A stretch of 64,000 bases of DNA from Escherichia phage vB_vPM_PD114: the sequence record MH675927.1, one strand, 5' to 3'. Both the position numbers and the translations under genes were made by a program. Positions 30,128 to 52,416 of the stretch are shown piece by piece (the stretch's first letter is position 1; the number at the start of each line of letters is the position of its first letter). The notes beneath the pieces were generated by a model. That model was not told the DNA's origin and searched no databases. It saw only the letters and a list, made by a program, of their open reading frames with translations.

Positions 30128-30844
30128 TTATTTCAGTTTGTAAACAATTACATTTAAACCTTTGTTCACTAGAGTTTCTTCGATCATAAGTTTTACAATA
30201 TTCCAAGAACCTCCAGCCAAACCACAACCAAGCATTGGTAAACCTACAATTTTACCGCCTGAAGATACAACATCGTCTCCCATACTATCTAACGCATTGT
30301 AGATAGCTTCATAATTCAGGTCACGCTTACCTTCCTCACGACGACTATAACCATATTGTCCATATAAATTATAAATTGTCAAATTGTTTTCTGTATACTT
30401 AGTAAACGTACCTAATTTTTTATAATCACCACGTTTAGTGGCACAATCTGCTTTAAACGCACCAGGCCACTTGCTTTTAATTTTTGGTGCAATACCACTA
30501 CCCATAGTGCAAAAACAGTTACAGCAGTGTGCTATAGCGTCTATATCGCCTCTCTCGGCTGCTGCTAAAAGATCACCGTATACCTCAATGATACCTGCTG
30601 GATAACTTGTTACAATTTCATCTTCCCAGTACATTTGCTCTACACCACCGATTAGTGCAAAGTTTTGTGTAATGCGATCATCAATATAATTAAGACCTGA
30701 AACATACACAGCATATTCATCCTGTGCTGTAATGCCTTGTACACGAATTCTTAAGACACCATCTTTATCTGTTGCTACACGCCCAAAATCTTTTTCTGTA
30801 ATACTGGTGATAGGATCTCCGAAAGTCGTCACTTTATTAGACAT
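30128..30844 (-). CDS. Macro-domain protein (ADP-ribose binding/processing) with N-terminal extension
   Basis: Start at ATG 30844 (RBS AAAGGGGA); C-terminal half GDIDAIAHCCNCFCTMGSGIAPKIK ... GLPMLGCGLAGGSW matches macro-domain blocks. Confidence 0.6.
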   Translation of the reverse strand: MSNKVTTFGDPITSITEKDFGRVATDKDGVLRIRVQGITAQDEYAVYVSGLNYIDDRITQNFALIGGVEQMYWEDEIVTSYPAGIIEVYGDLLAAAERGDIDAIAHCCNCFCTMGSGIAPKIKSKWPGAFKADCATKRGDYKKLGTFTKYTENNLTIYNLYGQYGYSRREEGKRDLNYEAIYNALDSMGDDVVSSGGKIVGLPMLGCGLAGGSWNIVKLMIEETLVNKGLNVIVYKLK

Positions 30845-31694
30845 AATAATCCCCTTTAACATTAGATTTGTTGATAATGTTGCTTTCAAAAAATTGATGC
30901 AGGAAATCAAAGTTCTCTTTGTATTTTTCAATATTATTGTAACCTTCTGCAAGGCAACCAAAGAACAGTTGTTCTACATAATACAAAGGAAGTTGTGAAA
31001 GTGCAATTTTAAAATCAACTTCGCTTTGACTCATTAGATACTTAATAGGACGAACCAAACATTTAGCATCAGTTTCTTGCTTAATCATTTTAATAAAAGC
31101 TGCCAGGTTATTGATATAGTTGAAGTTAAGTGCAGCTTCGGTGTTGGCTTCTGTACCTTCATACTTTGCAAAGTACAGGAAAAACGTATCGTTTTCAACA
31201 CCTTCTTTGTCTAAAATTTCAATAAGTTTTTCTTCGTGTGTTCCTGTAATATTAACATCATCAATGAAAATCAGAGTTTTATTACCCCAGAAATCACGAT
31301 TGATAGAGAAAGTGTCACCATCGATCAAAGCCTTACGATCTTCTTTGCTAAGAAATCCATAATCATTGATATAACTCACTTTACGATGAACGATATCCCA
31401 CTCTACTGCTTTACCTCCTTTGATAGAGATTAGGTAGTTGAGGTGATCTACAAAATGTTCAGATAACACTGTAGCTGCATTTTTCACATAGTTATATGGA
31501 GATGGAATAACAACAAAACTTTCATTTACTAGTCGTTCTTCATATTTAAAAAAGAAACTTTCAGCCAGAATGCGTCCCATTCTTTTTGCTGCCTGGTTAC
31601 TACCAAACTTTAGTTTGGAATAATCTGCAATGTTAAATTTTGCTTCCTTCAGGTTAGTAAAAGTATTAGCAAAATGTTGAATTTGATTACGCAT
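30837..31694 (-). CDS. phosphoribosyltransferase (type I PRTase) domain protein
   Basis: PRPP-binding motif TLIFIDDVNITGTHEEK (hydrophobic-DD-hydrophobic-x-TG-T); RBS GAGG; overlaps the HAD stop by 8 nt. Confidence 0.6.
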   Translation of the reverse strand: MRNQIQHFANTFTNLKEAKFNIADYSKLKFGSNQAAKRMGRILAESFFFKYEERLVNESFVVIPSPYNYVKNAATVLSEHFVDHLNYLISIKGGKAVEWDIVHRKVSYINDYGFLSKEDRKALIDGDTFSINRDFWGNKTLIFIDDVNITGTHEEKLIEILDKEGVENDTFFLYFAKYEGTEANTEAALNFNYINNLAAFIKMIKQETDAKCLVRPIKYLMSQSEVDFKIALSQLPLYYVEQLFFGCLAEGYNNIEKYKENFDFLHQFFESNIINKSNVKGDYYV

Positions 31695-32343
31695 TAATAA
31701 GTTCCTCTTTTTTAAGTTTAGCCAACAAGTCTTCTGGATTAATAATATGACAGAACTTCATCCCTATGTCAACAGCTTTTCCATCATAAATCAAACTATC
31801 CCCAACGTGTAAAATCTCCTCTGGTGCGAGATCAAACGTTACCATTTCATCAAAAGAGAGTTTAAAAAACCTAGGATCTGGTTTACACAAGCAAAACTCA
31901 TCAGAAAAATGCATAAAGTCAAATGGTAATTTTGTTAAGCCAGAATATACAGCTAAGAAACTACCTGGTACAAAATTAGTATTGCTCTTAATACTCAAAG
32001 AATAGGTTGAACTTAGCTCTTCCAACTTCTTGCAAAGCTCAGGGTTCAATATTGGAGGATGTTTTATAAACATTGCTAAACAGTCTCTTTTTAACCCATC
32101 CACTTTATCAAGATCAATGTTGAAACGAGTAGAAAGTGTTTCCCAAGCGTTCCTAGACGTTCCACAAATGCCTTTTTCTGCTTTTAAATCCAGGAGAGTT
32201 TTTACCTCTTTATATACGGTAGCTGCTTCTGCCTCAGAACAAGAGGCATACTCGGCAATAACCTTGTTGCGTTCTTCTGCATACAAAGGATTAGCAGTAA
32301 TAAGAGTATTCCATACATCAAAAGAAATATGCTTAACAGTCAT
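31687..32343 (-). CDS. HAD-superfamily hydrolase (phosphatase-like)
   Basis: Start at ATG 32343 (RBS GGAGG); motif I ISFDVWNTL and motif IV HVGDSLIYD (GDxxxD). Confidence 0.55.
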   Translation of the reverse strand: MTVKHISFDVWNTLITANPLYAEERNKVIAEYASCSEAEAATVYKEVKTLLDLKAEKGICGTSRNAWETLSTRFNIDLDKVDGLKRDCLAMFIKHPPILNPELCKKLEELSSTYSLSIKSNTNFVPGSFLAVYSGLTKLPFDFMHFSDEFCLCKPDPRFFKLSFDEMVTFDLAPEEILHVGDSLIYDGKAVDIGMKFCHIINPEDLLAKLKKEELINA

Positions 32344-32345
32344 TT

Positions 32346-32501
32346 TTAATCCTCCGTCCAAAAGAATATCATCTGCTTAATTTTATTGATCTCTTGATGT
32401 AGTAACTTTCCAGCATGTGATTGATCTTTAATATTGACAGCAAGAATTTCAAGCTCCGTTAGTTTTTCCTGGATAGCTTTATATTCATCATCTGTAAGCA
32501 T
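32346..32501 (-). CDS. small hypothetical coiled-coil protein (not in supplied ORF track)
   Basis: ATG 32501 with RBS AAGGGG; 51 codons; fills the gap before the HAD gene. Confidence 0.3.
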   Translation of the reverse strand: MLTDDEYKAIQEKLTELEILAVNIKDQSHAGKLLHQEINKIKQMIFFWTED

Positions 32502-32512
32502 TTTCTTCCCCT

Positions 32513-32704
32513 TTAGAATGGTAATCTTTGTATGTCACTTAGCCCCACACCCAGAAGTCTAGCAATATCCTTATCTAAAAGCAACTCTTTTTGTTCTAAA
32601 ATGTTAATCAAATCTCCTAATACTTCTTTAATGTCACGATCATTTTTAGCAACGTGACCACCTGCGGTATCAACTTTATCTTTAAAAACAAAATAATGAT
32701 CCAT
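32513..32704 (-). CDS. hypothetical protein
   Basis: Start trimmed to ATG 32704 (RBS GGAGG). Confidence 0.35.
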   Translation of the reverse strand: MDHYFVFKDKVDTAGGHVAKNDRDIKEVLGDLINILEQKELLLDKDIARLLGVGLSDIQRLPF

Positions 32705-32721
32705 AATACCCTCCATATAAA

Positions 32722-32747
32722 TAAAGGAGGCTTTCGCCTCCTTTTAT
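32722..32747. terminator. rho-independent terminator (GGAGGC-TTTC-GCCTCC)
   Basis: Hairpin with T-tracts on both strands; downstream of the AAA ATPase gene on the minus strand. Confidence 0.5.
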
Positions 32748-32750
32748 CAC

Positions 32751-33911
32751 TTAGTAAGAACGACCACCAAACACATACTCTGTGTAGTTTTTACGTTCTT
32801 TGTTTTTAATAACAACTTCAATGTTGTTACCTTTATCATCGGTGAACATAAAGTGATAGCCGTCACCACCCATTGTACGAATGTGTTTTTCATCATACGT
32901 TAGCAAGATACGGTCTACACCCCAGTAGTAGTCACCTTCTTCATCTTTATCTTCTACGGTAACAATCCCTTCCATTTCAGGAAGATGCTCTTCTCCTGAC
33001 TTATGATCTACAGCTACAACATAACGATTACCGCTAAACAAACCTTGTGCTGTCATACCGTCAATATCGGTATCTGACGAAACATCTCCTGTACGATCTA
33101 CACCGTTAACTTTCAGAAGTTTAACTTCTTTTGCAGCATAGCCGTGTTCAGTAATACTGATACCCATTAATGCAAGTGCATCAGAGAATTTGTCATTAGG
33201 ATAACGGTTAAGTTCTTCTACTAATGACTGAACAATATCAAAGTTCAAATCCACGGAGAGATTATAAAGCGTTTCAAAATCTGGTAAGAAGGCTTTGTTC
33301 TCCAGATTTTTAGCCAGATAATCATCCATAGTAGCTTTAGGTAGTTTCTTATAGCTAAAACTGTAGAAAATACGGCTAGGACGATTACGCAAAAATTCTG
33401 ATACATAACCATCATTTTTAGTCAATACAAACAGCTTGTCATAACCACCAACACCATCCAGCAGGGTAAGCAAACCATCTTGTGCATCTTTTTCAGCATA
33501 CAGTTTATCAAATTCATCGATCATAATCATCACAGGTTGTGTGATTTTAGACATAAAATTGATAAAGCCTTCACCATTAAAAGCACTACCGATAGAAATA
33601 GTAGGAATACCCATTTCACGAAGAGCAGAAGACAGCATTTTAGCTTGCAAAGTTTTACCGCTACCTTTCGTACCCTCAAGGAGAACACCTGTGTTTTTAC
33701 CTTTGCGGCTAAGGAACGTCTTGATAATACGTTCTGATTTATCATCAGTATCACCGTATGTTACTGAAGGGACTTCCATATCATTTTTAGGATACAGGAA
33801 GAACTCGCCACTTTGAGTAACACCTACACCAAAAGTTCCTGCTGGAATTTCTTCAATATCTGTACCAGACTTCTGACGCAGGAAGATTTGATTGCCGAAT
33901 ACTGTAAACAT
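32751..33911 (-). CDS. AAA-type ATPase, paralog A
   Basis: Walker A GTKGSGKT, Walker B IMIDEFDK, sensor-like RPSRIFY; paralog of 49472-50599 with a divergent C-terminal half. Confidence 0.65.
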   Translation of the reverse strand: MFTVFGNQIFLRQKSGTDIEEIPAGTFGVGVTQSGEFFLYPKNDMEVPSVTYGDTDDKSERIIKTFLSRKGKNTGVLLEGTKGSGKTLQAKMLSSALREMGIPTISIGSAFNGEGFINFMSKITQPVMIMIDEFDKLYAEKDAQDGLLTLLDGVGGYDKLFVLTKNDGYVSEFLRNRPSRIFYSFSYKKLPKATMDDYLAKNLENKAFLPDFETLYNLSVDLNFDIVQSLVEELNRYPNDKFSDALALMGISITEHGYAAKEVKLLKVNGVDRTGDVSSDTDIDGMTAQGLFSGNRYVVAVDHKSGEEHLPEMEGIVTVEDKDEEGDYYWGVDRILLTYDEKHIRTMGGDGYHFMFTDDKGNNIEVVIKNKERKNYTEYVFGGRSY

Positions 33912-33931
33912 AGTTTTCTCCTCTATTTAAT

Positions 33932-34402
33932 TTAGTCAGATTCCCAAATGTTGTCTTTCTTAACCCACATTCGTTGATTATCTGAACCTCTATAACGTTT
34001 CGTTGTTGGTTGATTCATATCATACTTACCATCTATCACTATGTCAACCAGTTTTTTAATTTTCTCTGGAATTTCTTCAAAAAGATATCCTGTATATAAG
34101 ACAATATCTTTTTTGTTTCCAAAACAATCTCTTACCTTCTCAAGAACATACTCTACAGTGTCAATGTTCTCTTTGTCAAGAGGTTCACCACCTAAAACTG
34201 TTAATCCTTTAATGAAAGGTCGAGATAAATCTTCCAAGATAAGATCTAATGTTTCAGCAGTGAACTCTTGTCCGTAATTATACGACCAGGCTTTCTGGTT
34301 AAAGCAGCCACGGCAACCGTGGCTACAACCGCTCACCCACAAAGAGCATCTTACACCGTCACCGTTGAGCATGTCAACAGGTTCATATCCGGCGTAATTC
34401 AA
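33932..34402 (-). CDS. nrdG: anaerobic ribonucleotide reductase activating protein NrdG (radical SAM)
   Basis: MNYAGYEPVDMLNGDGVRCSLWVSGCSHGCRGCFNQ follows the NrdG N-terminus including the CxxxCxxC radical-SAM cluster; TTG start; 4-nt overlap with nrdD stop. Confidence 0.85.
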   Translation of the reverse strand: MNYAGYEPVDMLNGDGVRCSLWVSGCSHGCRGCFNQKAWSYNYGQEFTAETLDLILEDLSRPFIKGLTVLGGEPLDKENIDTVEYVLEKVRDCFGNKKDIVLYTGYLFEEIPEKIKKLVDIVIDGKYDMNQPTTKRYRGSDNQRMWVKKDNIWESD

Positions 34403-35340
34403 AAATGTTTCTCCCTTTCTAGTACCTCTTGCATTTTACCTTTATTATAAGGGCGAGAGTTAGGAGCAGAAAGGTATCCTGACACTCTTCTGATCACAGA
34501 TATGGATTCTTCTTCATGATTACCGCAACTTGGACACTCGAAGCCTTTAGCCGTTGCTTTAAACTCACCATGAAAACCACATTTGAAACACTGATCTACA
34601 GGTTGGTTCACGCCAAAATAAGGAATTTTGTTGTAGGCATAATCTACAAGAGTTTCCAGTGCTTGCAAGTTATTTTTAAGGTTTGGTGTTTCTACATAAC
34701 CTATGTTCCCACCGTTACTAATTTGTGCAAAACCTTCCTCATAATCCCACTTTTGGAACGGGGTAGTGTGCATCCATACAGGTTGATGGAAAGAGTTTGT
34801 CAAGTAGTCACGATCAATAGAACCAGGATAGCGATCATTTAATGCTTTGGCAAATTTATAGCACAAGGATTCTGCTGGTGTTCCATACAAACTAAAAGCT
34901 AAACCAGAACGTTCTTTAAATGTGCCACAGATATCCTTCATATATTGAAGGATGTTTTTACCCATTGCTTTTGGATTGGTGTTACCTGGGTATAAAATCT
35001 CCATAGCTTCTGCTAAACCTACATAACCGATACTAATAGAGGCATAACCACCTTCGAATAGTTTACCAATCTCTTCATTAGCTTCTAGTCGAGCTAAAGC
35101 CCCTTCCATAAACAATGTAGGGTTTTGAGATGCTTTGGTATGTCTAATACGGTTAACACGTAGCATATGTGCCTTATACGCCATCTCCATATGTTGTTCC
35201 AACAGTTCAGTAAATAAGATGCCCTTTTCACGGGACTCTGCTGCAATGATAGGTAAGTTTAAAGAAACTACGCCTAAGTTGAAACGACCATCATATTTTT
35301 CACCTTGCTCTGTTGCATAGTATGACAAGAAACTTCTACA
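34399..35340 (-). CDS. nrdD: anaerobic ribonucleotide reductase NrdD, exon 2
   Basis: C-terminal zinc ribbon CFKCGFHG...CPSCG and glycyl-radical motif RRVSGYL; exon starts TGT AGA (CRSFLSYY) right after the predicted 3-prime splice site. Confidence 0.8.
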   Translation of the reverse strand, partial: CRSFLSYYATEQGEKYDGRFNLGVVSLNLPIIAAESREKGILFTELLEQHMEMAYKAHMLRVNRIRHTKASQNPTLFMEGALARLEANEEIGKLFEGGYASISIGYVGLAEAMEILYPGNTNPKAMGKNILQYMKDICGTFKERSGLAFSLYGTPAESLCYKFAKALNDRYPGSIDRDYLTNSFHQPVWMHTTPFQKWDYEEGFAQISNGGNIGYVETPNLKNNLQALETLVDYAYNKIPYFGVNQPVDQCFKCGFHGEFKATAKGFECPSCGNHEEESISVIRRVSGYLSAPNSRPYNKGKMQEVLEREKHF

Positions 35341-35619
35341 CATTATGTTCAAAGTGGCTCGCAAGGCCACTCCCGCACCATTACGTGCTGCTGCATGTCA
35401 CCATGCAGATCAGACTATATCTTCATGCTTAAAGCATGTCTACCATTTGGGGTGTCATAGGCTTACACCCTACGCTGCTACATTCATCACAGCTAGTCGT
35501 TAGGCATTTCGTAATAGTACCCCCTTCTTCTGTGTTGGGAGTTCTGTTACGTTTAGCACGGGATTGTCTCGTTGAGAGTTCCCCCGTTTAGGCAGATTTT
35601 ACATGAGCAGTTATAGTTT
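35341..35619 (-). ncRNA. group I self-splicing intron (td-like, no internal ORF) interrupting nrdD
   Basis: 279 nt between the two nrdD reading frames; core-like TAAACGGGGGAACTCTCAACGAGACAATCCCGTGCTAAAC and P7 3-prime element AAGATATAGTC; CTGCATG-GTGA-CATGCAG hairpin near the 3-prime end; ends GAACATAATG; exon 1 ends ...ATGGGT. Confidence 0.75.
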
Positions 35620-36477
35620 ACCCATGCTTGTGACGCGACCATCTGAAGATCCTGTAACTTCTTTGTTTAAAGGTACAGAGATAAAATCAGGATAAATGCG
35701 TTCAGCACAACACTCCATTGCCAGTTGCTTCAAATCATAGTTTGGATCGCCAGCTTTCATGTTAACACCATCTTCCAAGAAGAAGATAACTTTAGGAAAC
35801 ACAGGAGTTACCCTATCTTTTCCTAATCCTTGTTTGTGCACCATTAGGTAGTTTTTAGTGATCATTCTACCAAAAGCAGAGGTATCCAAACCTAAACTAA
35901 TTGTTATAAAAGGTGACTGACCATTTACACTCATTAGAGTGTTCACCTGGTAGATTAAAGTTTGCATTGCATCATAGACCTGTTTATCTACCATACGCAT
36001 AGCAATATCATAATCGCCAACATCGGCATATATTTTATTAAAACTTGCTTTAACGTATTGACTAAGCCCAGTATCAACATGTGCACAAGTTTGTCCACCA
36101 TATTGGCTAGAGGCTACTGCTTGAATAATTTGAGTTAGGACAGTAGTTGCTACACCGATAGATTTTGGTTTTTCAATATGTGCATTACCAATACGGAAAC
36201 CGTTCTCAAGCATATCTTGGTAATTTACCAGGCAACAATTAGTTAGAGGTGAGAGTAAATAATCTAAATCGTGAATGTGACCATACCCGCTTTTATGCCA
36301 TTCTGCCAGATCTTCCGGTAAAATATGGGTCATTGCCATGTGCTTGCTCAGAATACCTGCTAGTAAGTCTCGGTGAGTATTAACAATCATTGCAGGTTTG
36401 TTTGCATTTTCACGAGTAAATTCTTCGGATGTTTGTTCGAGGAATCCGATTACATCCTCATATAGTTTTTGGGTCAT
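35620..36477 (-). CDS. nrdD: anaerobic ribonucleotide reductase NrdD, exon 1
   Basis: Start ATG 36477 (RBS GGAGG); reading frame stops 9 nt into the intron; splicing predicted to join ...RVTSMG to CRSFLSYY..., giving a 599-aa product. Confidence 0.8.
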
Positions 36478-36494
36478 TAATCCTCCGTGGAAAA

Positions 36495-36520
36495 TAAAAG
36501 CCAGCATTAAGCTGGCTTTA
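36495..36520 (-). terminator. rho-independent terminator
   Basis: AAAGCCAGC-TTAATG-CTGGCTTT hairpin followed on the minus strand by TATTTTCC; between 36567-37517 and nrdD. Confidence 0.5.
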
Positions 36521-36566
36521 GGGTGGATCTTTATTTTAAATCTTTTTCGTAAGATTGTCCTTGATC

Positions 36567-37517
36567 TTAGTCAAGGTTTTTGGTAATACGTGTACAACCG
36601 TCAGAAGTCAAACCGTCAACTTGAGTTTCCCAAGTACCATGAATATTTCGGAACAATGTTGTTACACCTTTTGGTTCATTAATAATGATTGCCATAACAA
36701 GTTTAGGATCGATAACAGACATAATCTTTTCCTCAATACCCTCTGTAATAACATTATTGCGCACAATATTAATTGCATCTTCTTGTACAGTAAGAACACT
36801 TACGTTCTTAAGAGTATATACCTGCTGTGTAGTGTAAATGATACGAACATAACTTACAGAACGAGTAGGCACAGGTTTACGCGGTCGGCGAAAACGTGGT
36901 TTTGGTGAAGATTCAGTTTTACTTTCATCTTTTGAATAATACTCCTCAAACAGTTTAGTAAATGTTTTTACATCAACTACAAACCGATCTTTCCGATATG
37001 GAGAATTCTTATGTGCACCATTAATACCACTGTTTTCATCGAAGAAAGTAATGTTTTCTTCATTTGAATACATTAGATAATGATCTGCATTTTTCCAATG
37101 TGGTTGTGGACAACGAGGATTACAAACGGAAAGCAGATAACTAATATCTTCTTCCGTGGCATCAGTATCCACGAAACACGTATTATGCACAGTCAGTTGT
37201 ACTTTTTCAGCCATATCTTTTTCTTTATCCTCTTTAGCAAGATATTCAGTACGAATAATCTCCAGAAAATTTTCAGGTGTTACTTCCATAAATGTATATT
37301 CAGGATGAAGTTCCATATATTCAAATCCACAACCATCTAACTGCTGTAGAAAGTTAGGGTAGAAGAACAAATCATTAACACTGTGAATCAGATCATTGAT
37401 TTCTGCTTCAGTTGTGTAACCAAAACTCTTGTGAATTGCTTCGTTAAGAATATGCAGGATACCCATCTCTTCTGCTGCTTTTTTAACTTCCAGTTTATTA
37501 GCGTAAAATGCAATCAT
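36567..37517 (-). CDS. hypothetical protein
   Basis: 316-aa ORF with AAGGAG RBS. Confidence 0.45.
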   Translation of the reverse strand: MIAFYANKLEVKKAAEEMGILHILNEAIHKSFGYTTEAEINDLIHSVNDLFFYPNFLQQLDGCGFEYMELHPEYTFMEVTPENFLEIIRTEYLAKEDKEKDMAEKVQLTVHNTCFVDTDATEEDISYLLSVCNPRCPQPHWKNADHYLMYSNEENITFFDENSGINGAHKNSPYRKDRFVVDVKTFTKLFEEYYSKDESKTESSPKPRFRRPRKPVPTRSVSYVRIIYTTQQVYTLKNVSVLTVQEDAINIVRNNVITEGIEEKIMSVIDPKLVMAIIINEPKGVTTLFRNIHGTWETQVDGLTSDGCTRITKNLD

Positions 37518-37534
37518 TATGTTCTCCTTCTAAA

Positions 37535-37969
37535 TTAGTTTAAAATTTCTTTTGCAATGGTAGAAGCAAGTTTTCCATCATATTGATTCGGATACTCTGC
37601 TTTAAGGTGTTTCATCATATCTGGCATTTTCTTGCCTGTCAAGGCAAATTCTTCAGCAATAGCTCGAAGATCATCTTCAGATAGCATTTCTGGCAAATAT
37701 TTTTCCAGAGTGGTGATATCACGCATAGCTCGCTCACATTTGCTAATGGAGGCATTAACTTTCTTAAGTGAGTCTAGTTCCTCTTTAGCGTGTGCAATAC
37801 CAATCTTAACAATGTTAATCATAATATCGTCTTCTGATTTGTTTAGATTTGCCTTTTGAGTACGAGCAAGGTCAAACTCACCAATAATATTAGTTAACAA
37901 AGCAAAAGCACCCTTATCGGTTGTACGTGCTAAGATACGATCTGCTTTCATTTGTGTCACAATAGACAT
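37535..37969 (-). CDS. GatB/YqeY-domain protein
   Basis: Pattern ...LEKYLPEMLSEDDLRAIAEEFALTGKKMPDMMKHLKAEYPNQYDGKLASTIAKEIL matches the YqeY/GatB C-terminal domain (YLPxxLSEEEL...MGxVMKxLK...GRADGKxVS). Confidence 0.55.
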   Translation of the reverse strand: MSIVTQMKADRILARTTDKGAFALLTNIIGEFDLARTQKANLNKSEDDIMINIVKIGIAHAKEELDSLKKVNASISKCERAMRDITTLEKYLPEMLSEDDLRAIAEEFALTGKKMPDMMKHLKAEYPNQYDGKLASTIAKEILN

Positions 37970-37981
37970 TCTATTCTCCTC

Positions 37982-38554
37982 TTATTTGCTAATGCTTTGA
38001 ATGTTATTTACAACACGGTTTATTGCCAGTGAAGCCCTAGGCTCCGCAATACCTGTTGCATAGATATAAGGATGACCTTTTGGAGACTCCCTCATACCGA
38101 ATGAACCTAATTCTAAACCATATTCATCCTCTACGTCAACCCCAATATTAGTGGGTACTAAATATGTTTTAACTCCATAATAAGTAGAGAAGAAACAGCG
38201 CATAGCGTTAGCATACTCTTCAATTGTAGCATCAGGGTAGAACTCAATCAACTCCAATTTCAAGAAAATATTAAAATGGGTATCATCTAAATTTTCTTCT
38301 GTACGGTAACATGGCGTTAGTGCCATATACGGATTACCTGCTGCAAATTCAAAACCATCCTTCTCCATTTGCAGGAAAGATTGTTCTGCACTAGCTACAT
38401 AGTATTTACCGTTAGGATGCCCTAATGGGCGATCCTCTTTATTTTCTGGTAGTGTGTACGCCAGTATATCAGCATCCACGAGATATGGAACTTCTAACAT
38501 TTGTGCAAATCGACCATAGTAATCAATAGCTTGAGCTATTACTGCAACATTCAT
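37982..38554 (-). CDS. hypothetical protein; weak class II aminoacyl-tRNA-synthetase-like core resemblance (tentative)
   Basis: Possible motif-2-like TPCYRTEEN...FNIFLKLELIEF and motif-3-like ATGIAEPRASLAI; too short for a full synthetase; start ATG coupled to upstream stop (ATGA). Confidence 0.3.
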   Translation of the reverse strand: MNVAVIAQAIDYYGRFAQMLEVPYLVDADILAYTLPENKEDRPLGHPNGKYYVASAEQSFLQMEKDGFEFAAGNPYMALTPCYRTEENLDDTHFNIFLKLELIEFYPDATIEEYANAMRCFFSTYYGVKTYLVPTNIGVDVEDEYGLELGSFGMRESPKGHPYIYATGIAEPRASLAINRVVNNIQSISK

Positions 38555-38802
38555 GATCGACCTCCGCTACGGAATGCACGTTTAGTAATGTTTGACATAG
38601 TGATCAAATCTTGAAGCGTCATCTCAGGAAAATGCTGTTCAAGAACACCTTCAACAGCGCCTACAATATCTGATAACTCAATAAGTTGCATCAGCTTGCA
38701 ATCTTGATCAATAGCATCTTGAAGTTCATAAAGCTCTTCTTGAATCTTAGCAACAGAACCATATTCCTCTTTGCTAATCTCCTTCAAATGATACCCTGCC
38801 AC
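38551..38802 (-). CDS. MazG-like all-alpha NTP pyrophosphohydrolase (tentative)
   Basis: EExxExxD-type motif (IQEELYELQDAI) and downstream acidic helix typical of short phage MazG proteins; GTG start with AAGGGGGG RBS. Confidence 0.4.
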   Translation of the reverse strand: MAGYHLKEISKEEYGSVAKIQEELYELQDAIDQDCKLMQLIELSDIVGAVEGVLEQHFPEMTLQDLITMSNITKRAFRSGGRS

Positions 38803-38813
38803 TTTAACCCCCC

Positions 38814-41588
38814 TTAGTTTACCAGTTTATTTATGTCTGGTAAAAGATTTATTTCACCTAAGAAATCACCTTCACCTTCCTCTAGCCAACTCTCATATGC
38901 TTGTGCATGATTATAGTTACCATCAAAAGAATCTGCAACAAATTTTTCTACAGTTTTTCGAGATGTGCCAGCGCCAAATACACCAAGTTTAATACCATTG
39001 ATCGGTAAAGTGGTGCTTGTGGGTACTTTCTCTGTTGCAACACGGTTGATATCTATAATCTCCTGTACGGTTGTGTTCCATTGTAAGCATTTAACACAAC
39101 GGGTATGCGCTACATACAGTAGGTTTCGCTCTGCCTCTTCTAGTCCTACCCACTCACCAGTCTTTTTATCATAGTTGGAAGGAAAATCATTAGCAACAAT
39201 AACCTGATCCCACTCCAAACCTTTAGACTTGTGTGCTGTAGTCAATGTGACTTTTGCTGTAGGAGAATTTCTATGCGTTCTAAGTGTATGTGCTATAGTG
39301 TTTGCCTTACCAGAAACTACAATGTTTAACAAGCGTTTAGCATCTGGATCAGCCTCTGCACACTCAACAAATTCATTCCAGTCTGCGTAAGGTAATACAG
39401 TTTCATGTTTTACTTTCTCAATATCTCCTCTCCGAAGAGCATTAACACTATCTACCATAGAGATAAAATCCCTGGTATCTACGTTAATAATAATTTCTTC
39501 CCCATCTGCAATACGATCCATTGCCTCCATAAGCAAGGTTAAATTCTTGCGAAAGATGATAGTGTAAGGTTTTGTATAGTCTACAACATCTGATTTGTAG
39601 CTACCTACTACAGTATCAAAGCCTTTACCAACCAAAGGATGACGCAAAGGTTCTTTATCACTTAAAATCATATTTGCAATGTTTGCCACTTTGGGGCCAA
39701 AACGGAAGCAAGCAGTTAATGGAAGCTCTGCCCCATACTTAGCTGTTTCAATCATCATATTAGAGCTACCTCTAAATTGATAAATGCAGTTGTGGCTAAG
39801 AATTTCATTGCCAAAAAAGTTAGCAGTATCTTCTACTTCAATATCATAATAGATACCCTCACTATCTACAATGTCCACTATCTCTTCTGCCGTTACAGTA
39901 TCACCATCTTTTACTAACACAGACATGCCTTTAAACAAACCCGCTGCCGGAATTAAATTATATTTGGCAGTGTTCACAGAGGACATGCATTCTTTTAAAG
40001 ATGCAAACGGAACTATTTCAAGGATCTTTTGTGCAAAACTCAATGCTTCACGATAAGAATTGAAATATTTACGTACACGGTAACGACCTTCCAATTTAGC
40101 AACACTTACGCTTACACCTGCTTCAATGAGTGAGGCATAGATTGGCATTTCACTTTCTGTCCACTCAAAGCTAACTTGTGTTCCTTTACAACCTTGTGCT
40201 CGCAAAGTCACTGTTAACATTTTTCTTGCATCTACTGCACAATTGATGCTGTGCCAATGTGGATAAGCAAAATGATAGTCTTTATCCTCTAAAAGTTTAA
40301 AACCATTTTGTCCGAATTGTTCAAAGATATTGTTGATCCTTTCTTGATTAATACCGCGTGAACTTGCTTCAAATACACAAGTAGGAATGCCATATTGTAA
40401 ACTGTATGCCATTTCTTTTTCCATAGCAGCTTCACGGTTTTCAACAATATCCAACACCCACAACTTCTGTGCTTTTTCAGAACGTGTACGTTGCCCCAGT
40501 TTAGAAAAACCTTCTTTATCATCGAATTTGTTAGTGATCCCTACTCGGAAACCTAAATCTTTTCTCCACATTAGGTATACCACCATCTGATCATCTTTCA
40601 GAACATAAGGTGAAGCCCAAATACGATGGTTATGTGTCATATCTAAAGTCTTACCTTTAGCAGTAATAATATTCCTACCTTTTGTACGTGTAGATAAAGT
40701 CTTATTTGTTACTTTTCTAAATGTAACTTTACCGTTAGAATAAGACTCTACCTTATCACCGATTTGCAGGTCTTTCATTGTAACCTGACCATTTTCGGTA
40801 TTAAGTACCGTGTTTTCTGACACACATTGGAATTCATCACCAACTACCACAATTTGTTTGGCAGATTTAGCATTCCGCAGAATAGACAAGAATGCAGGGT
40901 TAACATCCTGGAATTCATCCCCAAAAATAATGTCATAACCAAGATCAGCACCAGACAATTCAAACAATTTTACATAGGTGTCATGCGTCATCAAAGTATC
41001 TGTGTTAGGGTCAATGCGCTCTCGCCACAATTGTTTTGCATACTTAACTACTTCTGTAATTAGTTTGTGTTCGTTAATACCTTTTCTTTTAATATCTGCA
41101 AGATGTACACTAGGAAAATGTTTACGGCTGATAAAAGGATCATCCGAAAATTCAAACTTACCTACGGTTTGCTTGATCATTAAACCAATCATAGCACGAG
41201 TTAAAAGTGTTTTCCCTCGTTTATCAATAAGATTATTAATCTTAAATTTCTTTGCTATCTCACTACCTGTACCTGCAACGTTAACATACTGTCCTTCTGG
41301 TCGTGACAGTTTTGCACGTAAACGATGATCCAGGAATTGATAGCAAATGGAATGCAATGTACGGCATTCTACATTTGGTGGCATCTTACGCCGTGCTTCT
41401 TCTGCCATGCTTTTATTGAAAGCTAAGTAAAGAATGCGATCTTCTGTACTGTTAGCCAGCAAATAAAGTGTTGACGTTTTTCCTGATCCAGATTTAGCTT
41501 GGATAGTTAAAAACCGATGATCTGGAAAAGCCTCCTTAATAGCTGTTTGCTCTTCTGTTGGAGTAAAACTCAACTCTTTCTTAGCCAT
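38814..41588 (-). CDS. UvrD/PcrA-like superfamily 1 DNA helicase; contains an intein
   Basis: Walker A AKSGSGKTS, motif II IIFGDEFQD, motif III VVVGDEFQ|...|CIYQFRGSS split by the intein; start at ATG 41588 (RBS AGAGAGG). Confidence 0.85.
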   Translation of the reverse strand: MAKKELSFTPTEEQTAIKEAFPDHRFLTIQAKSGSGKTSTLYLLANSTEDRILYLAFNKSMAEEARRKMPPNVECRTLHSICYQFLDHRLRAKLSRPEGQYVNVAGTGSEIAKKFKINNLIDKRGKTLLTRAMIGLMIKQTVGKFEFSDDPFISRKHFPSVHLADIKRKGINEHKLITEVVKYAKQLWRERIDPNTDTLMTHDTYVKLFELSGADLGYDIIFGDEFQDVNPAFLSILRNAKSAKQIVVVGDEFQCVSENTVLNTENGQVTMKDLQIGDKVESYSNGKVTFRKVTNKTLSTRTKGRNIITAKGKTLDMTHNHRIWASPYVLKDDQMVVYLMWRKDLGFRVGITNKFDDKEGFSKLGQRTRSEKAQKLWVLDIVENREAAMEKEMAYSLQYGIPTCVFEASSRGINQERINNIFEQFGQNGFKLLEDKDYHFAYPHWHSINCAVDARKMLTVTLRAQGCKGTQVSFEWTESEMPIYASLIEAGVSVSVAKLEGRYRVRKYFNSYREALSFAQKILEIVPFASLKECMSSVNTAKYNLIPAAGLFKGMSVLVKDGDTVTAEEIVDIVDSEGIYYDIEVEDTANFFGNEILSHNCIYQFRGSSNMMIETAKYGAELPLTACFRFGPKVANIANMILSDKEPLRHPLVGKGFDTVVGSYKSDVVDYTKPYTIIFRKNLTLLMEAMDRIADGEEIIINVDTRDFISMVDSVNALRRGDIEKVKHETVLPYADWNEFVECAEADPDAKRLLNIVVSGKANTIAHTLRTHRNSPTAKVTLTTAHKSKGLEWDQVIVANDFPSNYDKKTGEWVGLEEAERNLLYVAHTRCVKCLQWNTTVQEIIDINRVATEKVPTSTTLPINGIKLGVFGAGTSRKTVEKFVADSFDGNYNHAQAYESWLEEGEGDFLGEINLLPDINKLVN
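39789..40826 (-). mobile_element. intein in helicase motif III (346 codons)
   Basis: Starts CVSENTVLNTENGQVTMKDLQIGDKV (canonical intein N-terminal block), ends FFGNEILSHN followed by Cys; removal restores VVVGDEFQ-CIYQFRGSS. Confidence 0.75.
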
Positions 41589-41589
41589 T

Positions 41590-42066: not shown

Positions 42067-42074
42067 ATTTCCCC

Positions 42075-42590: not shown

Positions 42591-42612
42591 TATATTTTTC
42601 CTTATTGGTTTA

Positions 42613-42978: not shown

Positions 42979-43342
42979 AAATATCCTCCCAAATCCAATA
43001 ATCATCTGTGTAAGTAGGATGCCTTTTATCCCACTCTGTTCTAGCCCAAGCAACCGCTGCTACCAACACATCACCATGACAAGGTTGAGGTGCGCAGAAG
43101 CAAACTAAGTCTTTCCCTTCTAATTCTAACAAATCCTCAAGAGTGATTTTACCACAACGAATTTGTTCCCACAACCACTCTTTATATCTTTGTATAGTTG
43201 ACCCTCGTGGTTCATCATCCTTTAACTTAAAAGGATTTGCAAACTTTGAGGCTTTTAACCCCATATGAGGCATAGCTCTGCCAATGTACACTGCACCTTC
43301 AGGTATTACTTTACCTAAGTGGTAAAAATTTAATACTTTCAT
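42956..43342 (-). CDS. DUF4326-family protein (predicted ADP-ribose-processing domain)
   Basis: AVYIGR...GSKFANPF...YKEWLWEQI...LEGKDLVCFCAPQPCHGDVL matches the DUF4326 signature; start ATG 43342 coupled to upstream stop. Confidence 0.6.
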   Translation of the reverse strand: MKVLNFYHLGKVIPEGAVYIGRAMPHMGLKASKFANPFKLKDDEPRGSTIQRYKEWLWEQIRCGKITLEDLLELEGKDLVCFCAPQPCHGDVLVAAVAWARTEWDKRHPTYTDDYWIWEDIYEDYTRN

Positions 43343-43343
43343 A

Positions 43344-43694
43344 TTAACCCAAACACATCTGTGCAATCAAGCCCTGTATAAATTTATTAGCTTCTTTACT
43401 GTCGTAATCAGTTTCTTCTGGATATCCATCTTCATCGTACACAACTGTACCTTCAATATACCCTGCCTCAATTAAGGCGCGGATCATATCAAATTGCCAG
43501 CATGAATTACCAAATGGACGTTTACCATTAAAACACTCTTCTTCTCTCCATAACGTAGAGAGTAGTTGTCGGAAATATTCCCGTACAGTGACAGTACCAA
43601 GATCTGAATCCTCAAACATAACATCCAGGGCATCAGGATTGCTTTTCTCTACATAAGGAATATATTTAACACCATTAATAGTTACATCAAGCAT
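43344..43694 (-). CDS. hypothetical protein
   Basis: 116-aa ORF. Confidence 0.4.
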   Translation of the reverse strand: MLDVTINGVKYIPYVEKSNPDALDVMFEDSDLGTVTVREYFRQLLSTLWREEECFNGKRPFGNSCWQFDMIRALIEAGYIEGTVVYDEDGYPEETDYDSKEANKFIQGLIAQMCLG

Positions 43695-44057
43695 TTATTT
43701 CTCCTTATCATCATATTCTAGGAACATATCTGCACGATATGCTTTACGCTCTTCAAACTTAGCAGGATCTACAACAATAAGCAATACAAGGTTAACATCT
43801 AAATACTTCTTAACAAATAGAAATAAATCTTTTCCACAGTTAAAACCTACACCAGTATAGGCATCCCCATATTGATCTACTGATTTAATCTTCTTACTAA
43901 CCGTACATTCTATGCTATTCTTTTCTTCTTGGTATAAGGCTTTCCCACCCCAATATGTAAAGAATTTAGTACCGTCAGCACCAAGTTTAAAACCCTCTGT
44001 TGCATGTCCCGCAAATGAAAGTAAACATAACCAAGTGATCATCAGGTACTTTAGCAT
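43695..44057 (-). CDS. hypothetical secreted protein
   Basis: Start at ATG 44057 (RBS GGGTGG); signal peptide MLKYLMITWLCLLSFAGHA. Confidence 0.4.
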   Translation of the reverse strand: MLKYLMITWLCLLSFAGHATEGFKLGADGTKFFTYWGGKALYQEEKNSIECTVSKKIKSVDQYGDAYTGVGFNCGKDLFLFVKKYLDVNLVLLIVVDPAKFEERKAYRADMFLEYDDKEK

Positions 44058-48223: not shown

Positions 48224-48224
48224 T

Positions 48225-48814: not shown

Positions 48815-48834
48815 AATACAGACGGGAGAAAGGT

Positions 48835-49008: not shown

Positions 49009-49022
49009 GTGAGGAATAAAGA

Positions 49023-49460: not shown

Positions 49461-49471
49461 AAGGGGTTAAA

Positions 49472-50599
49472 ATGAAATACACGATTTATGGTGATATTGT
49501 AAGTGTAAATAAAGATATGGGTGTGGAATCTAATTATCTTCCACCTGGATTCTATACTGTTAGTCGTGATCCCCTTGGCAATTATTTTTTAAGCCGTGGT
49601 AATCTAACAGGTGTACCGGATGTTCTGTATGGTGAAACAGAAAAACGAGCAAATCACGTTATCCGTACATTCCATCGCCGGAGTGCACAAGGTAAAAATA
49701 CAGGTTTGCTTCTGACAGGAACTAAGGGCAGTGGTAAAACTATGTTAGCCAAGCTCATTAGTCGTGACCTTGTAGAAGAAGGTATTCCAACTATTATGGT
49801 TACTCAAGCCTACAGTGATGCTAATTTCATTGAACTTATTAGCAAGATCACCGACAAAGCAGTGATTATTTTTGACGAGTTTGATAAAGTATATGAGAAG
49901 AAACAAGATCAAGAAGCACTTCTCACTTTGTTAGATGGTACTGGCAGTGGTAATAAACTGTTTATTCTAACTAAAAACAGTGGCTTTATCTCTGAATTCT
50001 TTCTAAATCGTCCTAGTCGTGTGTTTTATAATTTTAATTATGATAAAATCTCACTAGAAACTATGATTGACTATTTAGATAAAAACCTGGATAACAAAGC
50101 ACACTTTGATAATTTCCAAAGACTTTGGGATGTAAGTTTAGAGTTGTCCTTTGATGTGATCCAAGGTATAGTAGAAGAACTTAATTTCTACCCTGATTTA
50201 TCCTTTAAAGAATGCATCTCTATGATGGGCGTTTCTTTGGGTGGTGGTAATAAATGGGATATCAGCAGCGTTGTTATTAATGGAAAACTTCAGAAAGTTA
50301 GCTGGGTATCTAGTTGGCATAACTTTACACCTGCAATCTTTTTAGGTGGCTCGTGCACACTAGACGTGTACTTGTCATCTCCAAGTGATGCAGACTCTAA
50401 AGAAGCCCTTGCTAATAGCTCTTACGTGGTTTTTGATGATGAAGGCGATGCTCGAATTCCATTGAATGCGACAAAAATGAAAGCAGATCTTATTACAGGC
50501 GGTAAAATCGTTGTGTTTAGTGATGATCCAGAAGATTCTTTCCGTATTGTTCTGGAACCAACTATCACCAATGGTGCAACTTTGGCAAGTGTGTTTTAA
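49472..50599 (+). CDS. AAA-type ATPase, paralog B
   Basis: Walker A GTKGSGKT, Walker B IIFDEFDK, RPSRVFY; N-terminal 230 aa colinear with 32751-33911, C-terminal half unrelated. Confidence 0.65.
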   Translation: MKYTIYGDIVSVNKDMGVESNYLPPGFYTVSRDPLGNYFLSRGNLTGVPDVLYGETEKRANHVIRTFHRRSAQGKNTGLLLTGTKGSGKTMLAKLISRDLVEEGIPTIMVTQAYSDANFIELISKITDKAVIIFDEFDKVYEKKQDQEALLTLLDGTGSGNKLFILTKNSGFISEFFLNRPSRVFYNFNYDKISLETMIDYLDKNLDNKAHFDNFQRLWDVSLELSFDVIQGIVEELNFYPDLSFKECISMMGVSLGGGNKWDISSVVINGKLQKVSWVSSWHNFTPAIFLGGSCTLDVYLSSPSDADSKEALANSSYVVFDDEGDARIPLNATKMKADLITGGKIVVFSDDPEDSFRIVLEPTITNGATLASVF

Positions 50600-50612
50600 G
50601 TAAGCCAGCAAA

Positions 50613-50640
50613 TAAAAACCCGCTTCGGCGGGTTTTCTTG
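50613..50640 (+). terminator. rho-independent terminator
   Basis: AAAACCCGC-TTCG-GCGGGTTTT followed by CTTG. Confidence 0.7.
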
Positions 50641-50673
50641 TATTGATGCCAGATTTAATAAAAGGAGCAGTAG

Positions 50674-51864
50674 ATGCCAGCACCAAAATCATGGGAACAA
50701 TATAAAGAAGAGTGTCAACTTCTTGCGAATAAGAAGGGGATTGAGATCCTAGGGTATGTTGAACCGTTTATAGGGGGTAGTACAAAAATGATCCTACGCT
50801 GTAGACAGAAACATGAATGGAATACTTGTAGTATTAAGAATTTCAAGCGCGGTAGAAGTTGTCCTATCTGTGCTGGTAAAAGCAAGACGTTAGAAGATTA
50901 CCTTGCAGAATGCCAGCCATTAGCTGTTGAAAGAGGGATAGAGATTTTAGGTATCAATGGTGAGTTTATAGGTTGTGATACGAAAATGATGCTACGTTGT
51001 AGGCATGGTCACGAATGGAACACATGTAGCTTTGATAATTTTAAACGTGGCAATGGTTGTCTTGTATGTAGGTATGAGAATACAAGGAAGTTACAAACAA
51101 TATCCGACGATCAACACGTTGCAGACTTCTTTTCTACTGGTGTCTTCCCTGAAGGCACTATCTTCACTAACACAGGAAGAAGTAACAAATTTGGAAAAAG
51201 TATTTGGATGATTGAGTGTCCTGTTTGTTCTCACGATGAATATGTGAAAGCTGGTGTATGTAATGGTAAATTTTATTCTAGAGGGTGTCACCTAAAACAA
51301 GGGAGTATCCCTTGCCGTTGTTCTACAAACTACCGTTATACAAAAGATCAGATCACCTACAGGGTAAAAAAGACAGTAGAAAGGAAAGGGTATGTTTGGG
51401 TAGGTTGGATCGGTAAACCGTCTATAAGACCAGGTAAGTTTAAATATCTTTGTCTTATGCATGGGGAACAGATAGGGCGTGCTGATTCCTTATTAAATCA
51501 GGATAGTGGTTGTCCACAATGTGCTGGTCATAGTCAACAGCAATTATATATTAATATTGTTAAAGATAATGATATTATAGTTGCTCTTAAGTTTGGCATA
51601 GCTAAAGATAGCGATAGACGATTAAACAGTCAAAATAGCCGTAATCTGTTTTTTATGGAGCGTATTTGTTTATATGATTTTAGCACAGTGAAACAGTGTA
51701 AGGCTGCTGAAAGAGCTATAAAGAAAAAATTAAAAACTGGTATTTTAACAGCAAGAGAGTTGAAAGACGGTCATACAGAAACAGTAAGTGTTTCTGATTT
51801 GGAAAATCTTCAAAAAATTATTACACAATGTGGTGGCAAATTAGTATACAATAAGGAGGTGTAA
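50674..51864 (+). CDS. zinc-ribbon repeat protein with C-terminal T5orf172/GIY-YIG-like domain (putative DNA-binding or nuclease)
   Basis: Repeated units ...HEWNTCS..NFKRG..CP.C...; C-terminal LYINIVKDNDIIVALKFGIAKDSDRRLNSQNS resembles the T5orf172 motif. Confidence 0.4.
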   Translation: MPAPKSWEQYKEECQLLANKKGIEILGYVEPFIGGSTKMILRCRQKHEWNTCSIKNFKRGRSCPICAGKSKTLEDYLAECQPLAVERGIEILGINGEFIGCDTKMMLRCRHGHEWNTCSFDNFKRGNGCLVCRYENTRKLQTISDDQHVADFFSTGVFPEGTIFTNTGRSNKFGKSIWMIECPVCSHDEYVKAGVCNGKFYSRGCHLKQGSIPCRCSTNYRYTKDQITYRVKKTVERKGYVWVGWIGKPSIRPGKFKYLCLMHGEQIGRADSLLNQDSGCPQCAGHSQQQLYINIVKDNDIIVALKFGIAKDSDRRLNSQNSRNLFFMERICLYDFSTVKQCKAAERAIKKKLKTGILTARELKDGHTETVSVSDLENLQKIITQCGGKLVYNKEV

Positions 51865-52416
51865 ATGCGGATTACTGACAAGTATGTGTTCTTCTTCTCG
51901 GCAAAAGATGAATTTAGCAACTGGTATCTATCATCTTTTATTGAACCTTTAGCTCCCAAGTATAATAATTCTATTACAAGTTCTGTCGAATTTACTTGTG
52001 TGGAACAATATATGATGTGGAGAAAAGCATGTTTGTTTTATGATTACAATATTGCATCTTCTATTTTAACCGGAGATCTAAGATATACAGGAGAAAAAGA
52101 ACAAGCATATTATAAACGACTAGGCAGATCAGTTAAAGATTATGATGAAGATACTTGGACTTCTTTACGGGAGAAGATTGTCAAGCGTGGTTTGTATCTT
52201 AAATACACACAAAATGAAGATCTCAAAAATAAACTTATCGCTTACGCAGATAAGGAGTTCGTAGAGGCAAGCCCCTATGATTCTATTTATGGTATCAAAA
52301 TGGGGATGTGGGATCGTGATGTTGAAAACAAGGATTGTTGGAAAGGACAAAATCTTTTAGGAAAATGGCATACAGACCTTGCTGTTTATCTAAAAACACA
52401 ATCTGATATTTCCTGA
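51865..52416 (+). CDS. NADAR (YbiA/DUF1768) family protein, predicted ADP-ribosyl N-glycosidase
   Basis: VFFFSAKDEFSNW...FTCVEQYMMWRKA...RLGRSV...ASPYDSIYGIKMG...GQNLLGK colinear with the YbiA/NADAR signature; RBS AAGGAGG. Confidence 0.75.
   Translation: MRITDKYVFFFSAKDEFSNWYLSSFIEPLAPKYNNSITSSVEFTCVEQYMMWRKACLFYDYNIASSILTGDLRYTGEKEQAYYKRLGRSVKDYDEDTWTSLREKIVKRGLYLKYTQNEDLKNKLIAYADKEFVEASPYDSIYGIKMGMWDRDVENKDCWKGQNLLGKWHTDLAVYLKTQSDIS

Follow-up and report, generated by a model that had tools for sequence, protein, structure and literature searches.

Macro, DUF4326 and NADAR proteins of a phi92-like Escherichia coli phage: three dispersed, stand-alone members of ADP-ribose-linked families

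Two phage proteins that counter DarTG defence systems are the closest described relatives of genes found in Escherichia phage vB_vPM_PD114, in which a stretch of 64,000 nucleotides (the window; sequence record MH675927.1) encodes a Macro, a DUF4326, and a NADAR protein. The first is bas60_0111 of phage PaulScherrer (BASEL phage Bas60), named AdfN^Bas60 by Johannesman, Carlson & LeRoux (Nat Commun 2025); it neutralises DarT1, allows RB69, T5, and Bas25 to plate again on DarTG1 hosts, and is without effect on DarTG2 (PMC11257639, PMC11825919). Bas60-62 are phi92-like phages of the BASEL collection (PMC8594841). The second is T4 Tk.4. In transposon screens of T4, DarTG1 returned adfN, and DarTG2 returned tk.4, the sole significant T4 gene required on DarTG2 hosts, which was renamed adfM; nrdA.1, the T4 member of the DUF4326 family, was not a hit (HIDEN-SEQ, 2025 preprint, 10.1101/2025.11.20.689424). 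Among macrodomains of other origin, SCO6735 of Streptomyces coelicolor, DarG (the DarTG2 antitoxin), and human TARG1 each take ADP-ribose (ADPr) off thymidine in single-stranded DNA (ssDNA), and SCO6735 rescues cells from DarT toxicity (PMC9411070). SCO6735 lacks the lysine of TARG1 and DarG; it relies on Gln85, which sits at that lysine position, on Asn27 and Gly128, and on a longer, basic 'mobile loop' (PMC9411070). DUF4326 has been assigned to the rhodanese-phosphatase superfamily, and large DNA viruses have been reported to combine Macro, NADAR, and DUF4326 more often than expected by chance (PMC9503650). Comparison with these systems makes it reasonably probable that the window encodes three independent, stand-alone accessory proteins of families acting on ADPr linkages.

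The window derives from a phi92-like E. coli myophage (Justusliebigvirus). Along their whole length, bases 30000-44000 show 98-99% identity to phi92, ECGD1, PD06, and ~50 other Justusliebigvirus (Stephanstirmvirinae) genomes, and the phi92 RefSeq record has the same gene order. The three open reading frames (ORFs) listed in an initial annotation of this DNA are all present, and their translations have been checked. They are the Macro gene at 30128-30844 on the minus strand (238 aa, ATG at 30844), the DUF4326 gene at 42956-43342 on the minus strand (128 aa, ATG at 43342), and the NADAR gene at 51865-52416 on the plus strand (183 aa, ATG at 51865). Their domain assignments, which the annotation had left to a search with hidden Markov models (HMMs), are far beyond chance. 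All three exceed the Pfam gathering threshold (GA), with 31.3 bits for Macro (PF01661; GA 22, E 2e-7, residues 106-217 only), 77.3 bits for DUF4326 (PF14216; GA 25), and 126.9 bits for NADAR (PF08719; GA 35.1), and PHROGs 335, 464, and 1017 concur. The start codons originally picked are the best supported. The Macro ATG is the annotated start in phi92 and overlaps the stop codon of the upstream PRTase_3 gene (ATGTCTAA); a longer TTG start at 30961 is conceivable in principle. The DUF4326 ATG lies 1 nt past the upstream stop, and homologs begin with the same MKVLNFY, the conserved N-terminus of the family. The NADAR ATG adjoins the upstream stop and is preceded by the Shine-Dalgarno sequence AAGGAGGT. 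The phi92 counterparts are gp185 ('phosphatase / Tk.4-like') for Macro, gp202 ('ribonucleotide reductase NrdA-like') for DUF4326, and gp223 (hypothetical) for NADAR. Such database names mislead: across various records, Macro is a 'phosphatase', DUF4326 a 'ribonucleotide reductase NrdA-like' protein, and NADAR a 'GTP cyclohydrolase II' or a 'DNA methyltransferase'.

The NADAR protein is identical to bas60_0111 at 181 of 183 residues, with 97.3% identity at the DNA level, and the two share the phage genus, the gene neighbourhood, and a stand-alone, Glu-type NADAR (…FVEASPYD…). The window protein is therefore distinct from T4 AdfN, which is of the His type, and from DarG1, which is of the Asp type. 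The six residues of the P. nicotianae NADAR that contact ADPr or act in catalysis (E43, K50, K75, R79, E125, and D130) correspond to E47, K54, K84, R88, E134, and D139 in the window, and these positions are invariant in an alignment of 48 homologs. The two substitutions relative to AdfN^Bas60, N62S and S89L, both fall at variable, non-conserved positions of the alignment. The window NADAR would thus be a guanine-ADPr DNA glycohydrolase and an anti-DarTG1 factor, a function shown for its 99%-identical ortholog and inferred for the window copy. By this mechanism it would cleave the N-glycosidic bond between ADPr and the N2 of guanine in ssDNA, erasing the DarT1 marks of DarTG1 and so allowing phage DNA to replicate. 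The initial annotation had proposed a toolkit for reversing ADP-ribosylation, of the DarT type for example, or for handling ADPr-derived immune signals; for NADAR the idea of DarT reversal was correct, given that AdfN^Bas60 counters DarT1 and rescues phages from DarTG1 and not from DarTG2. Its estimate of novelty was too high, because the co-occurrence of the trio was already in print (PMC9503650), and so was the function of this very NADAR. The NADAR part is already known as a characterised anti-DarTG1 factor.

Directly upstream of NADAR, and translationally coupled to it, is a gene on the plus strand (50674-51864) for a 396-aa protein with CapR-homology, treble-clef Zn-finger, and T5orf172 features (phrog_681, 'endonuclease'). 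Its counterpart in Bas60 has 467 aa, which marks it as a variable partner and is a difference between the two loci. It is separated by a strong terminator-like hairpin (50615-50636) from an AAA ATPase gene (49472-50599, plus strand), recognised like its neighbour from Pfam and PHROG matches. Downstream of NADAR, ~1.4 kb (52417-53880) contain only short ORFs (at most 88 aa), several terminator-like hairpins, and a switch in the direction of transcription. In Bas54, a related Vequintavirinae phage, a ~2-kb intergenic region free of insertions lies between oppositely transcribed genes (HIDEN-SEQ preprint 10.1101/2025.11.20.689424).

The Macro protein consists of a macrodomain proper (residues 86-238, which with the stop codon span 30128-30589 on the minus strand; PF01661), orthologous to that of phi92 gp185, and a lineage-specific N-terminal extension (residues 1-85; 30590-30844, minus strand). 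By tblastn, the macrodomain is matched in ~2,900 phage records (2908), the T-even tk.4 genes among them; the protein is 30% identical to T2 Tk.4 (E 9e-18) and falls in the same PHROG (335). Its best sequence matches in the PDB are SCO6735 and BT1257 (E 3e-15), TARG1, and DarG, and the PADLOC DarG model matches it with an E value of 1e-13, covering only model positions 6-144 of 329. An AlphaFold2 (AF2) model has a predicted local distance difference test (pLDDT) score >93 across the macrodomain and gives template modelling (TM) scores of 0.91 with TARG1, 0.84 with BT1257, 0.81 with DarG, and 0.77 with SCO6735. Sequence and predicted structure together place Macro in the ALC1/TARG1/DarG/SCO6735 clade.

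Within this clade, the predicted active site is of the SCO6735 type. Macro has H106, N109, Q163, the diphosphate loop GCGLAGG (206-212), and a long, basic loop at 165-174, with YSRREEGKR, matching H24, N27, Q85, G128, and the long mobile loop of SCO6735; N109, Q163, G206, and G212 are invariant in 52 homologs, and H106 is nearly so. The TARG1/DarG mechanistic type was not found. Macro has the same fold and belongs to the same ALC1-like class as these two proteins, but the catalytic lysine (TARG1 K84, DarG K80) is replaced by Gln163, and in the alignment the position of TARG1 Asp125 is occupied by Ala/Gly within GCGLAGG. The placement of SCO6735 Q85 at the lysine position (PMC9411070) is independent of this alignment. 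Macro also differs from DarG in having neither the C-terminal DarT-binding domain nor an adjacent DarT gene. The likeness to SCO6735 has its own limits: the two proteins are ~29% identical, V25 is replaced by Cys and both K34 and K89 by Ser, so that these lysines are not conserved although the Macro loop carries RR..GKR, and SCO6735 is the product of a bacterial, SOS-regulated gene whereas Macro is a phage protein. With T4 Tk.4/AdfM, Macro shares ~30% identity across the macrodomain, the PHROG, the Gln at the TARG1-K84/DarG-K80 position, the G-rich diphosphate loop, and the status of an orphan, stand-alone phage macrodomain without a DarT partner. In contrast to AdfM, Macro has the 85-aa extension and the long, basic mobile loop (the Tk.4 loop is short), and it lies in a Ter/PRTase_3 context rather than in the tk-vs region. 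Taken together, the active site and the homology to SCO6735 and AdfM make it fairly likely that Macro hydrolyses thymidine-ADPr and acts against the DarT2 of DarTG2. With Gln in place of the TARG1/DarG lysine and with its long, basic loop, it would remove ADPr from thymidine in ssDNA and so counter DarT2 in the manner of T4 Tk.4/AdfM. The notion of DarT reversal is thus well motivated for Macro as well, by kinship with the Tk.4/AdfM phage family and by the SCO6735-type active site.

The surroundings of Macro have to be weighed against this assignment. The minus strand of the window between 23001 and 32361 holds a fairly complete phage-borne Ter-like cluster, in which Pfam recognises TerD (23001-23597), vWA-TerF (23671-24465), TelA (25712-26815), TerC (28594-29571), PRTase_3 (30837-31694; PF15610, 141 bits), and a HAD-like hydrolase (31687-32361; 25.4 bits, slightly below its GA of 26.4). 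Phage-borne Ter systems were reportedly treated by Anantharaman, Iyer & Aravind in 2012. Like the phage-borne systems of Iyer et al. 2021, the window combines TerD, vWA-TerF, TelA, and TerC with PRTase_3 and HAD, which form the conserved biosynthetic ('nucleoside-like metabolite') pair of the phage Ter-like cluster; it differs from them in that Macro stands between PRTase_3 and TerC only in Stephanstirmvirinae-like phages. One may therefore ask whether Macro is itself part of this metabolite module (PRTase_3 and HAD, a MazG-like protein in relatives, and TerC/TerD/TelA/vWA-TerF), processing a phosphoribosyl or ADPr-like small molecule, for example by removing a 1''-phosphate as its legacy name 'phosphatase' would have it, and not serving DNA repair or acting against DarT. 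Besides the overlap of the Macro ATG with the PRTase_3 stop codon, two observations favour this. The order HAD-PRTase_3-(184-aa ORF)-Macro-x-TerC-TelA is found in all Stephanstirmvirinae-like loci, recurring in Phapecoctavirus and metagenomic relatives down to ~48-53% Macro identity. In addition, the N-terminal extension is apparently derived from the neighbouring ORF. It is carried only by phi92-like proteins and one 53%-identical relative (P0124), and shares 27% identity (E 3e-7) with the N-terminal portion of a 184-aa ORF (L008 5457-6008) that stands as a gene of its own between PRTase_3 and Macro in relatives; a local HMM finds the extension homolog fused or separate depending on the locus. 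ORFs of this kind, 184-191 aa long (L008 5457-6008, L014 7215-7787, and L015 4024-4584), match phrog_1247, a 'MazG-like' pyrophosphatase, and three homologs give consistent, sub-threshold Pfam MazG matches in the C-terminal half. The extension therefore looks like a gene fusion that lost its MazG half. The AF2 model of the extension, from a shallow alignment, has pLDDT values of 33-60. Fusion of the MazG-like ORF, minus the MazG half, is seen in L007 as well as in phi92-like phages, whereas Phapecoctavirus DE16 and L019 lack the ORF.

Membership of Macro in the Ter module is nonetheless unlikely. The HAD-PRTase_3 adjacency is kept in 17 of 17 loci examined, including the three most diverged viral PRTase_3 loci (L016-L018; jumbo-phage contigs, 42-50% identity, genomes of 153-292 kb), but no Macro was found within 6 kb of PRTase_3 in L016-L018, and Macro was rejected as a core component of the module on this ground. 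Furthermore, genes of the same macro clade are surrounded by small ORFs in Vequintavirus, belong to the tk-vs region in T-even phages, and keep quite different company elsewhere. In Pakpunavirus MAG1 (L004, 951-5520), an orthologous macro gene lies beside Prs and Nampt-like genes, in an arrangement like that of the NAD+ reconstitution pathway, and a DprA/SLOG-like gene; on a jumbo-phage contig (L010, 1997-12000), another lies beside Nudix, NAMPT, a second Macro, and SIR2. The absence of Macro from the diverged PRTase_3 loci and the occurrence of its clade in unrelated contexts led us to conclude that the adjacency of Macro and Ter genes is lineage-specific synteny, not a conserved module, with a small-molecule role for Macro being possible. 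The active site, for its part, fits the DNA-ADPr hydrolase SCO6735, the DNA-clamping basic loop included.

DUF4326 belongs to a very large family, with 20,696 representative clusters (50% identity) at E <= 1e-3. Phage matches number 980 records, mostly from large myophages, and T4 NrdA.1 is also a member, with 78.7 bits for the Pfam model used here. The window protein has the signature GR...NP...CxCx4CH and an acidic, aromatic C-terminal tail. The motifs quoted in the initial annotation, AVYIGR, ANPF, and CFCAPQPCHGDVL, are present and include invariant residues of the family, which are G21, R22, N36, L74, C81, C83, C88, and H89; a CxCx(3-5)CH motif is found in 145 of 147 representative matches. 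The motif might serve as a catalytic Cys loop or bind Zn. The AF2 model has a pLDDT of 89.6, and a Foldseek comparison of it with PDB folds gave no match with E <1. Likewise, the DUF4326 profile matched no PDB sequence, and hhalign gave an alignment of DUF4326 with NADAR a probability of only 0.2%. Neither the published rhodanese-phosphatase fold (PMC9503650) nor our own idea of a NADAR-like fold was thus confirmed. The window protein resembles the DUF4326/T4 NrdA.1 family of Iyer, Burroughs, and Aravind (Viruses 2021, 2022) in being a small, stand-alone protein of a large phage, and the Macro, NADAR, and SLOG fusions reported for that family are reproduced here.

These fusions were surveyed by scoring Pfam partners in the best 150 DUF4326 representatives, among which 31 are >200 aa. 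Partners in these 31 proteins include NADAR (7/31) and DarT1-type NADAR (1/31), as well as SLOG-type domains, which sum to 8/31 (YAcAr SLOG in four, DprA-like in three, and LDcluster4 SLOG in one). Macro and ThsA-Macro each score once (1/31), both in P0375, and ASCH and DUF488 are found in one protein each (1/31). A local HMM analysis of architectures yields five NADAR-DUF4326 proteins and one Macro-NADAR-DUF4326 protein, again P0375. This protein of 472 aa is encoded at 6001-7419 of L020/L021, virus-like metagenomic contigs of 29% GC. Its triple architecture also appears in the precomputed Pfam annotation, and its Macro, NADAR, and DUF4326 parts share 40, 30, and 50% identity with the respective window proteins, with motifs intact. 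Tandem DUF4326 domains, in two or three copies, are seen in P0361 (three), P0376, P0380, P0397, P0398, P0408, P0461, and P0499. A DarT toxin was considered beside P0487, the DarT1-type NADAR-DUF4326 fusion, and was rejected, as the downstream ORF matches no DarT structure.

The same partners raise the question whether Macro and DUF4326, and NADAR possibly as a second job, mainly degrade or recycle small ADPr derivatives instead of serving DNA repair. Candidate substrates would be immune signals (cyclic ADPr isomers, ADPr-1''P, or ADPr>P, for example) or the products of NADase defences. Iyer et al. 2022 prefer such a role for phage Macro, NADAR, SLOG, and DUF4326 proteins (PMC9503650). Fusions of DUF4326 to SLOG are about as frequent as those to NADAR, one DUF4326 fusion partner scores as a ThsA-type Macro, and the orthologous macro genes next to Prs and Nampt-like (Pakpunavirus) or NAMPT, Nudix, and SIR2 (jumbo phage) would suit the idea. 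It is, however, rather improbable for this trio as a whole: AdfN^Bas60 demonstrably counters a DNA-modifying toxin, and the phenotype of T4 AdfM is specific to DarTG2. The window itself also speaks against it. Pfam finds no gene for an ADP-ribosyltransferase (ART), sirtuin, Nudix, SLOG, or NAMPT protein in ~60 window ORFs, in a scan that did not take in all ORFs of <~80 aa. A DarTG system is likewise not found: neither the neighbouring genes nor the other window ORFs scanned encode an ART domain, and both NADAR and Macro are orphans in this respect.

How closely the three genes belong together is a separate matter. The statement in the initial annotation that three such domains lie in 22 kb is literally true; the spacing, however, is ~12 and ~8.5 kb, and the genes occupy both strands and three different operons. 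Macro and DUF4326 are 12 kb apart in a long leftward gene array, and NADAR is in a rightward array. Its proposal of a dedicated toolkit does not hold at the level of the locus, where the genes are dispersed over three transcription/translation contexts. As each is translationally coupled to unrelated neighbours, a 'toolkit' can be spoken of only for the genome as a whole. There, the trio is conserved throughout Justusliebigvirus and has orthologs in Phapecoctavirus; Vequintavirinae-like phages, 4MG for example, have orthologs of NADAR and DUF4326 as well. The trio recurs independently in T4. This conservation, the recurrence in T4, and the fusions speak for a genuine functional connection of the three families at the genome level, not in an operon. 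Their functional link, as first proposed, is upheld by the fusions, Macro-NADAR-DUF4326 among them, and is weakened by the rarity with which stand-alone DUF4326 genes lie near NADAR or Macro. It is quite improbable that the three are unrelated, that is, common accessory genes of large myophages that were acquired independently and share a 64-kb window by coincidence. Their dispersal over strands and operons, the scarcity of neighbouring NADAR or Macro genes at DUF4326 loci, the frequency of the families in large phages (2908 phage records for Macro, 980 for DUF4326, and 716 for NADAR), and the single-gene, defence-specific phenotypes in T4 would all fit coincidence. The triple fusion and several NADAR-DUF4326 fusions would not, and neither would retention across Justusliebigvirus and Phapecoctavirus, recurrence in T4, or the published, above-chance co-occurrence (PMC9503650).

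The reading of the trio as three independent, stand-alone proteins acting on ADPr linkages must also accommodate several results that weigh against it. For Macro, these are the identity to AdfM of only ~30%, the presence of an extra N-terminal region, the translational coupling to the PRTase_3/HAD/Ter cluster, and the occurrence of the same clade next to NAD+ salvage genes in other phages, which together make small-molecule substrates possible; the evidence for AdfM, moreover, comes from a preprint (10.1101/2025.11.20.689424). For DUF4326, the Foldseek search returned no recognisable fold, and only 2 of 80 stand-alone viral DUF4326 loci have NADAR or Macro within 2 kb (NADAR in both), a count made with clade-specific HMMs, so that divergent NADAR or Macro genes may escape it. 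A tight partnership is also disfavoured by the prevalence of short members, 119 of the best 150 representatives (~79%) having <=200 aa. Since nrdA.1 was not returned by the DarTG1 and DarTG2 screens, DUF4326 is probably dispensable against both systems. More generally, the activities of these particular Macro, DUF4326, and NADAR copies are inferred from their sequences.

Few NADAR or Macro neighbours, mostly short members, and the outcome of the T4 screens lead to the view that DUF4326 probably serves a substrate or step other than those of NADAR and Macro. Its repeated fusion to domains of the NADAR, SLOG, and Macro kinds, in turn, ties it to the same process. Under the three-protein reading, DUF4326, with its conserved Arg/Asn pocket and CxCx4CH motif, would most probably handle another ADPr linkage or the released ADPr product, a proposal of low specificity. 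In the initial claim that all three families are linked to ADPr, the part on DUF4326 was overstated: it is tied to ADPr by gene context alone, and its T4 member was not a screen hit. A tentative and more doubtful extension of this proposal is that DUF4326 represents a third enzyme class in conflicts over nucleic-acid ADP-ribosylation, either a Cys/His- or Zn-dependent hydrolase or a processor of released ADPr. The linkage attacked may then be one out of reach of both NADAR (guanine) and macrodomains (thymidine), for example ADPr attached to cytosine, adenine, or uracil, to a phosphate end, or to RNA. That DUF4326 is instead an 'NrdA.1-like' nucleotide-metabolism accessory of ribonucleotide reductase with no ADPr role, as might be read from the overlap of the T4 gene with nrdA, the names of many records, the label of PHROG 24867, and the location of the window NrdD/NrdG genes ~6-9 kb away, is very unlikely, for the name is merely positional, a UvrD-like helicase and other genes separate DUF4326 from nrdD/nrdG in the window, and ribonucleotide reductase domains are fused to 0 of the 31 multidomain members, about half of which carry NADAR, SLOG, or Macro.

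Several other features of the window were noted. The anaerobic ribonucleotide reductase gene nrdD is interrupted by a group I intron (35391-35665, minus strand; Rfam RF00028, 72.5 bits), with exons at ~34399-35370 and 35611-36507, which fits the 'spliced variant' annotation of phi92. An N6/N4 DNA methylase and three glycosyltransferase-like genes are encoded on the minus strand at 8515-9246 and 17804-20407; one of the latter has a weak, sub-threshold match to the TET-associated glycosyltransferase (TAGT). These genes may constitute a locus for the modification of DNA or of surface glycans. The 'hypothetical tRNA' annotated inside phi92 gp190 has no ARAGORN support in the window, and a promoter scan of the window was uninformative (31 sites versus 30.3 expected).

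Defences based on ADP-ribosyltransferases, DarTG among them, are widespread in enterobacteria, and phi92-like phages, with their broad host range, are candidates for therapy. That this lineage has an enzyme proven to act against DarTG1, and another that probably acts against DarTG2, is of use in predicting host range. The former was known; Macro would be new among proteins of the AdfM/SCO6735 kind and is set apart by its lineage-specific fusion and its unusual Ter context. Much of the remainder amounts to a correction of annotation, as 'phosphatase', 'NrdA-like ribonucleotide reductase', and 'GTP cyclohydrolase II' are misleading. The value for discovery lies in DUF4326, a very large family that is repeatedly fused to ADPr erasers, is present in T4 as nrdA.1, and could be approached in phages amenable to genetics, Bas60 or T4 for example. 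If DUF4326 does form a third enzyme class, the trio of phi92-like phages would be an eraser set of three specificities, as the Macro-NADAR-DUF4326 fusion suggests.

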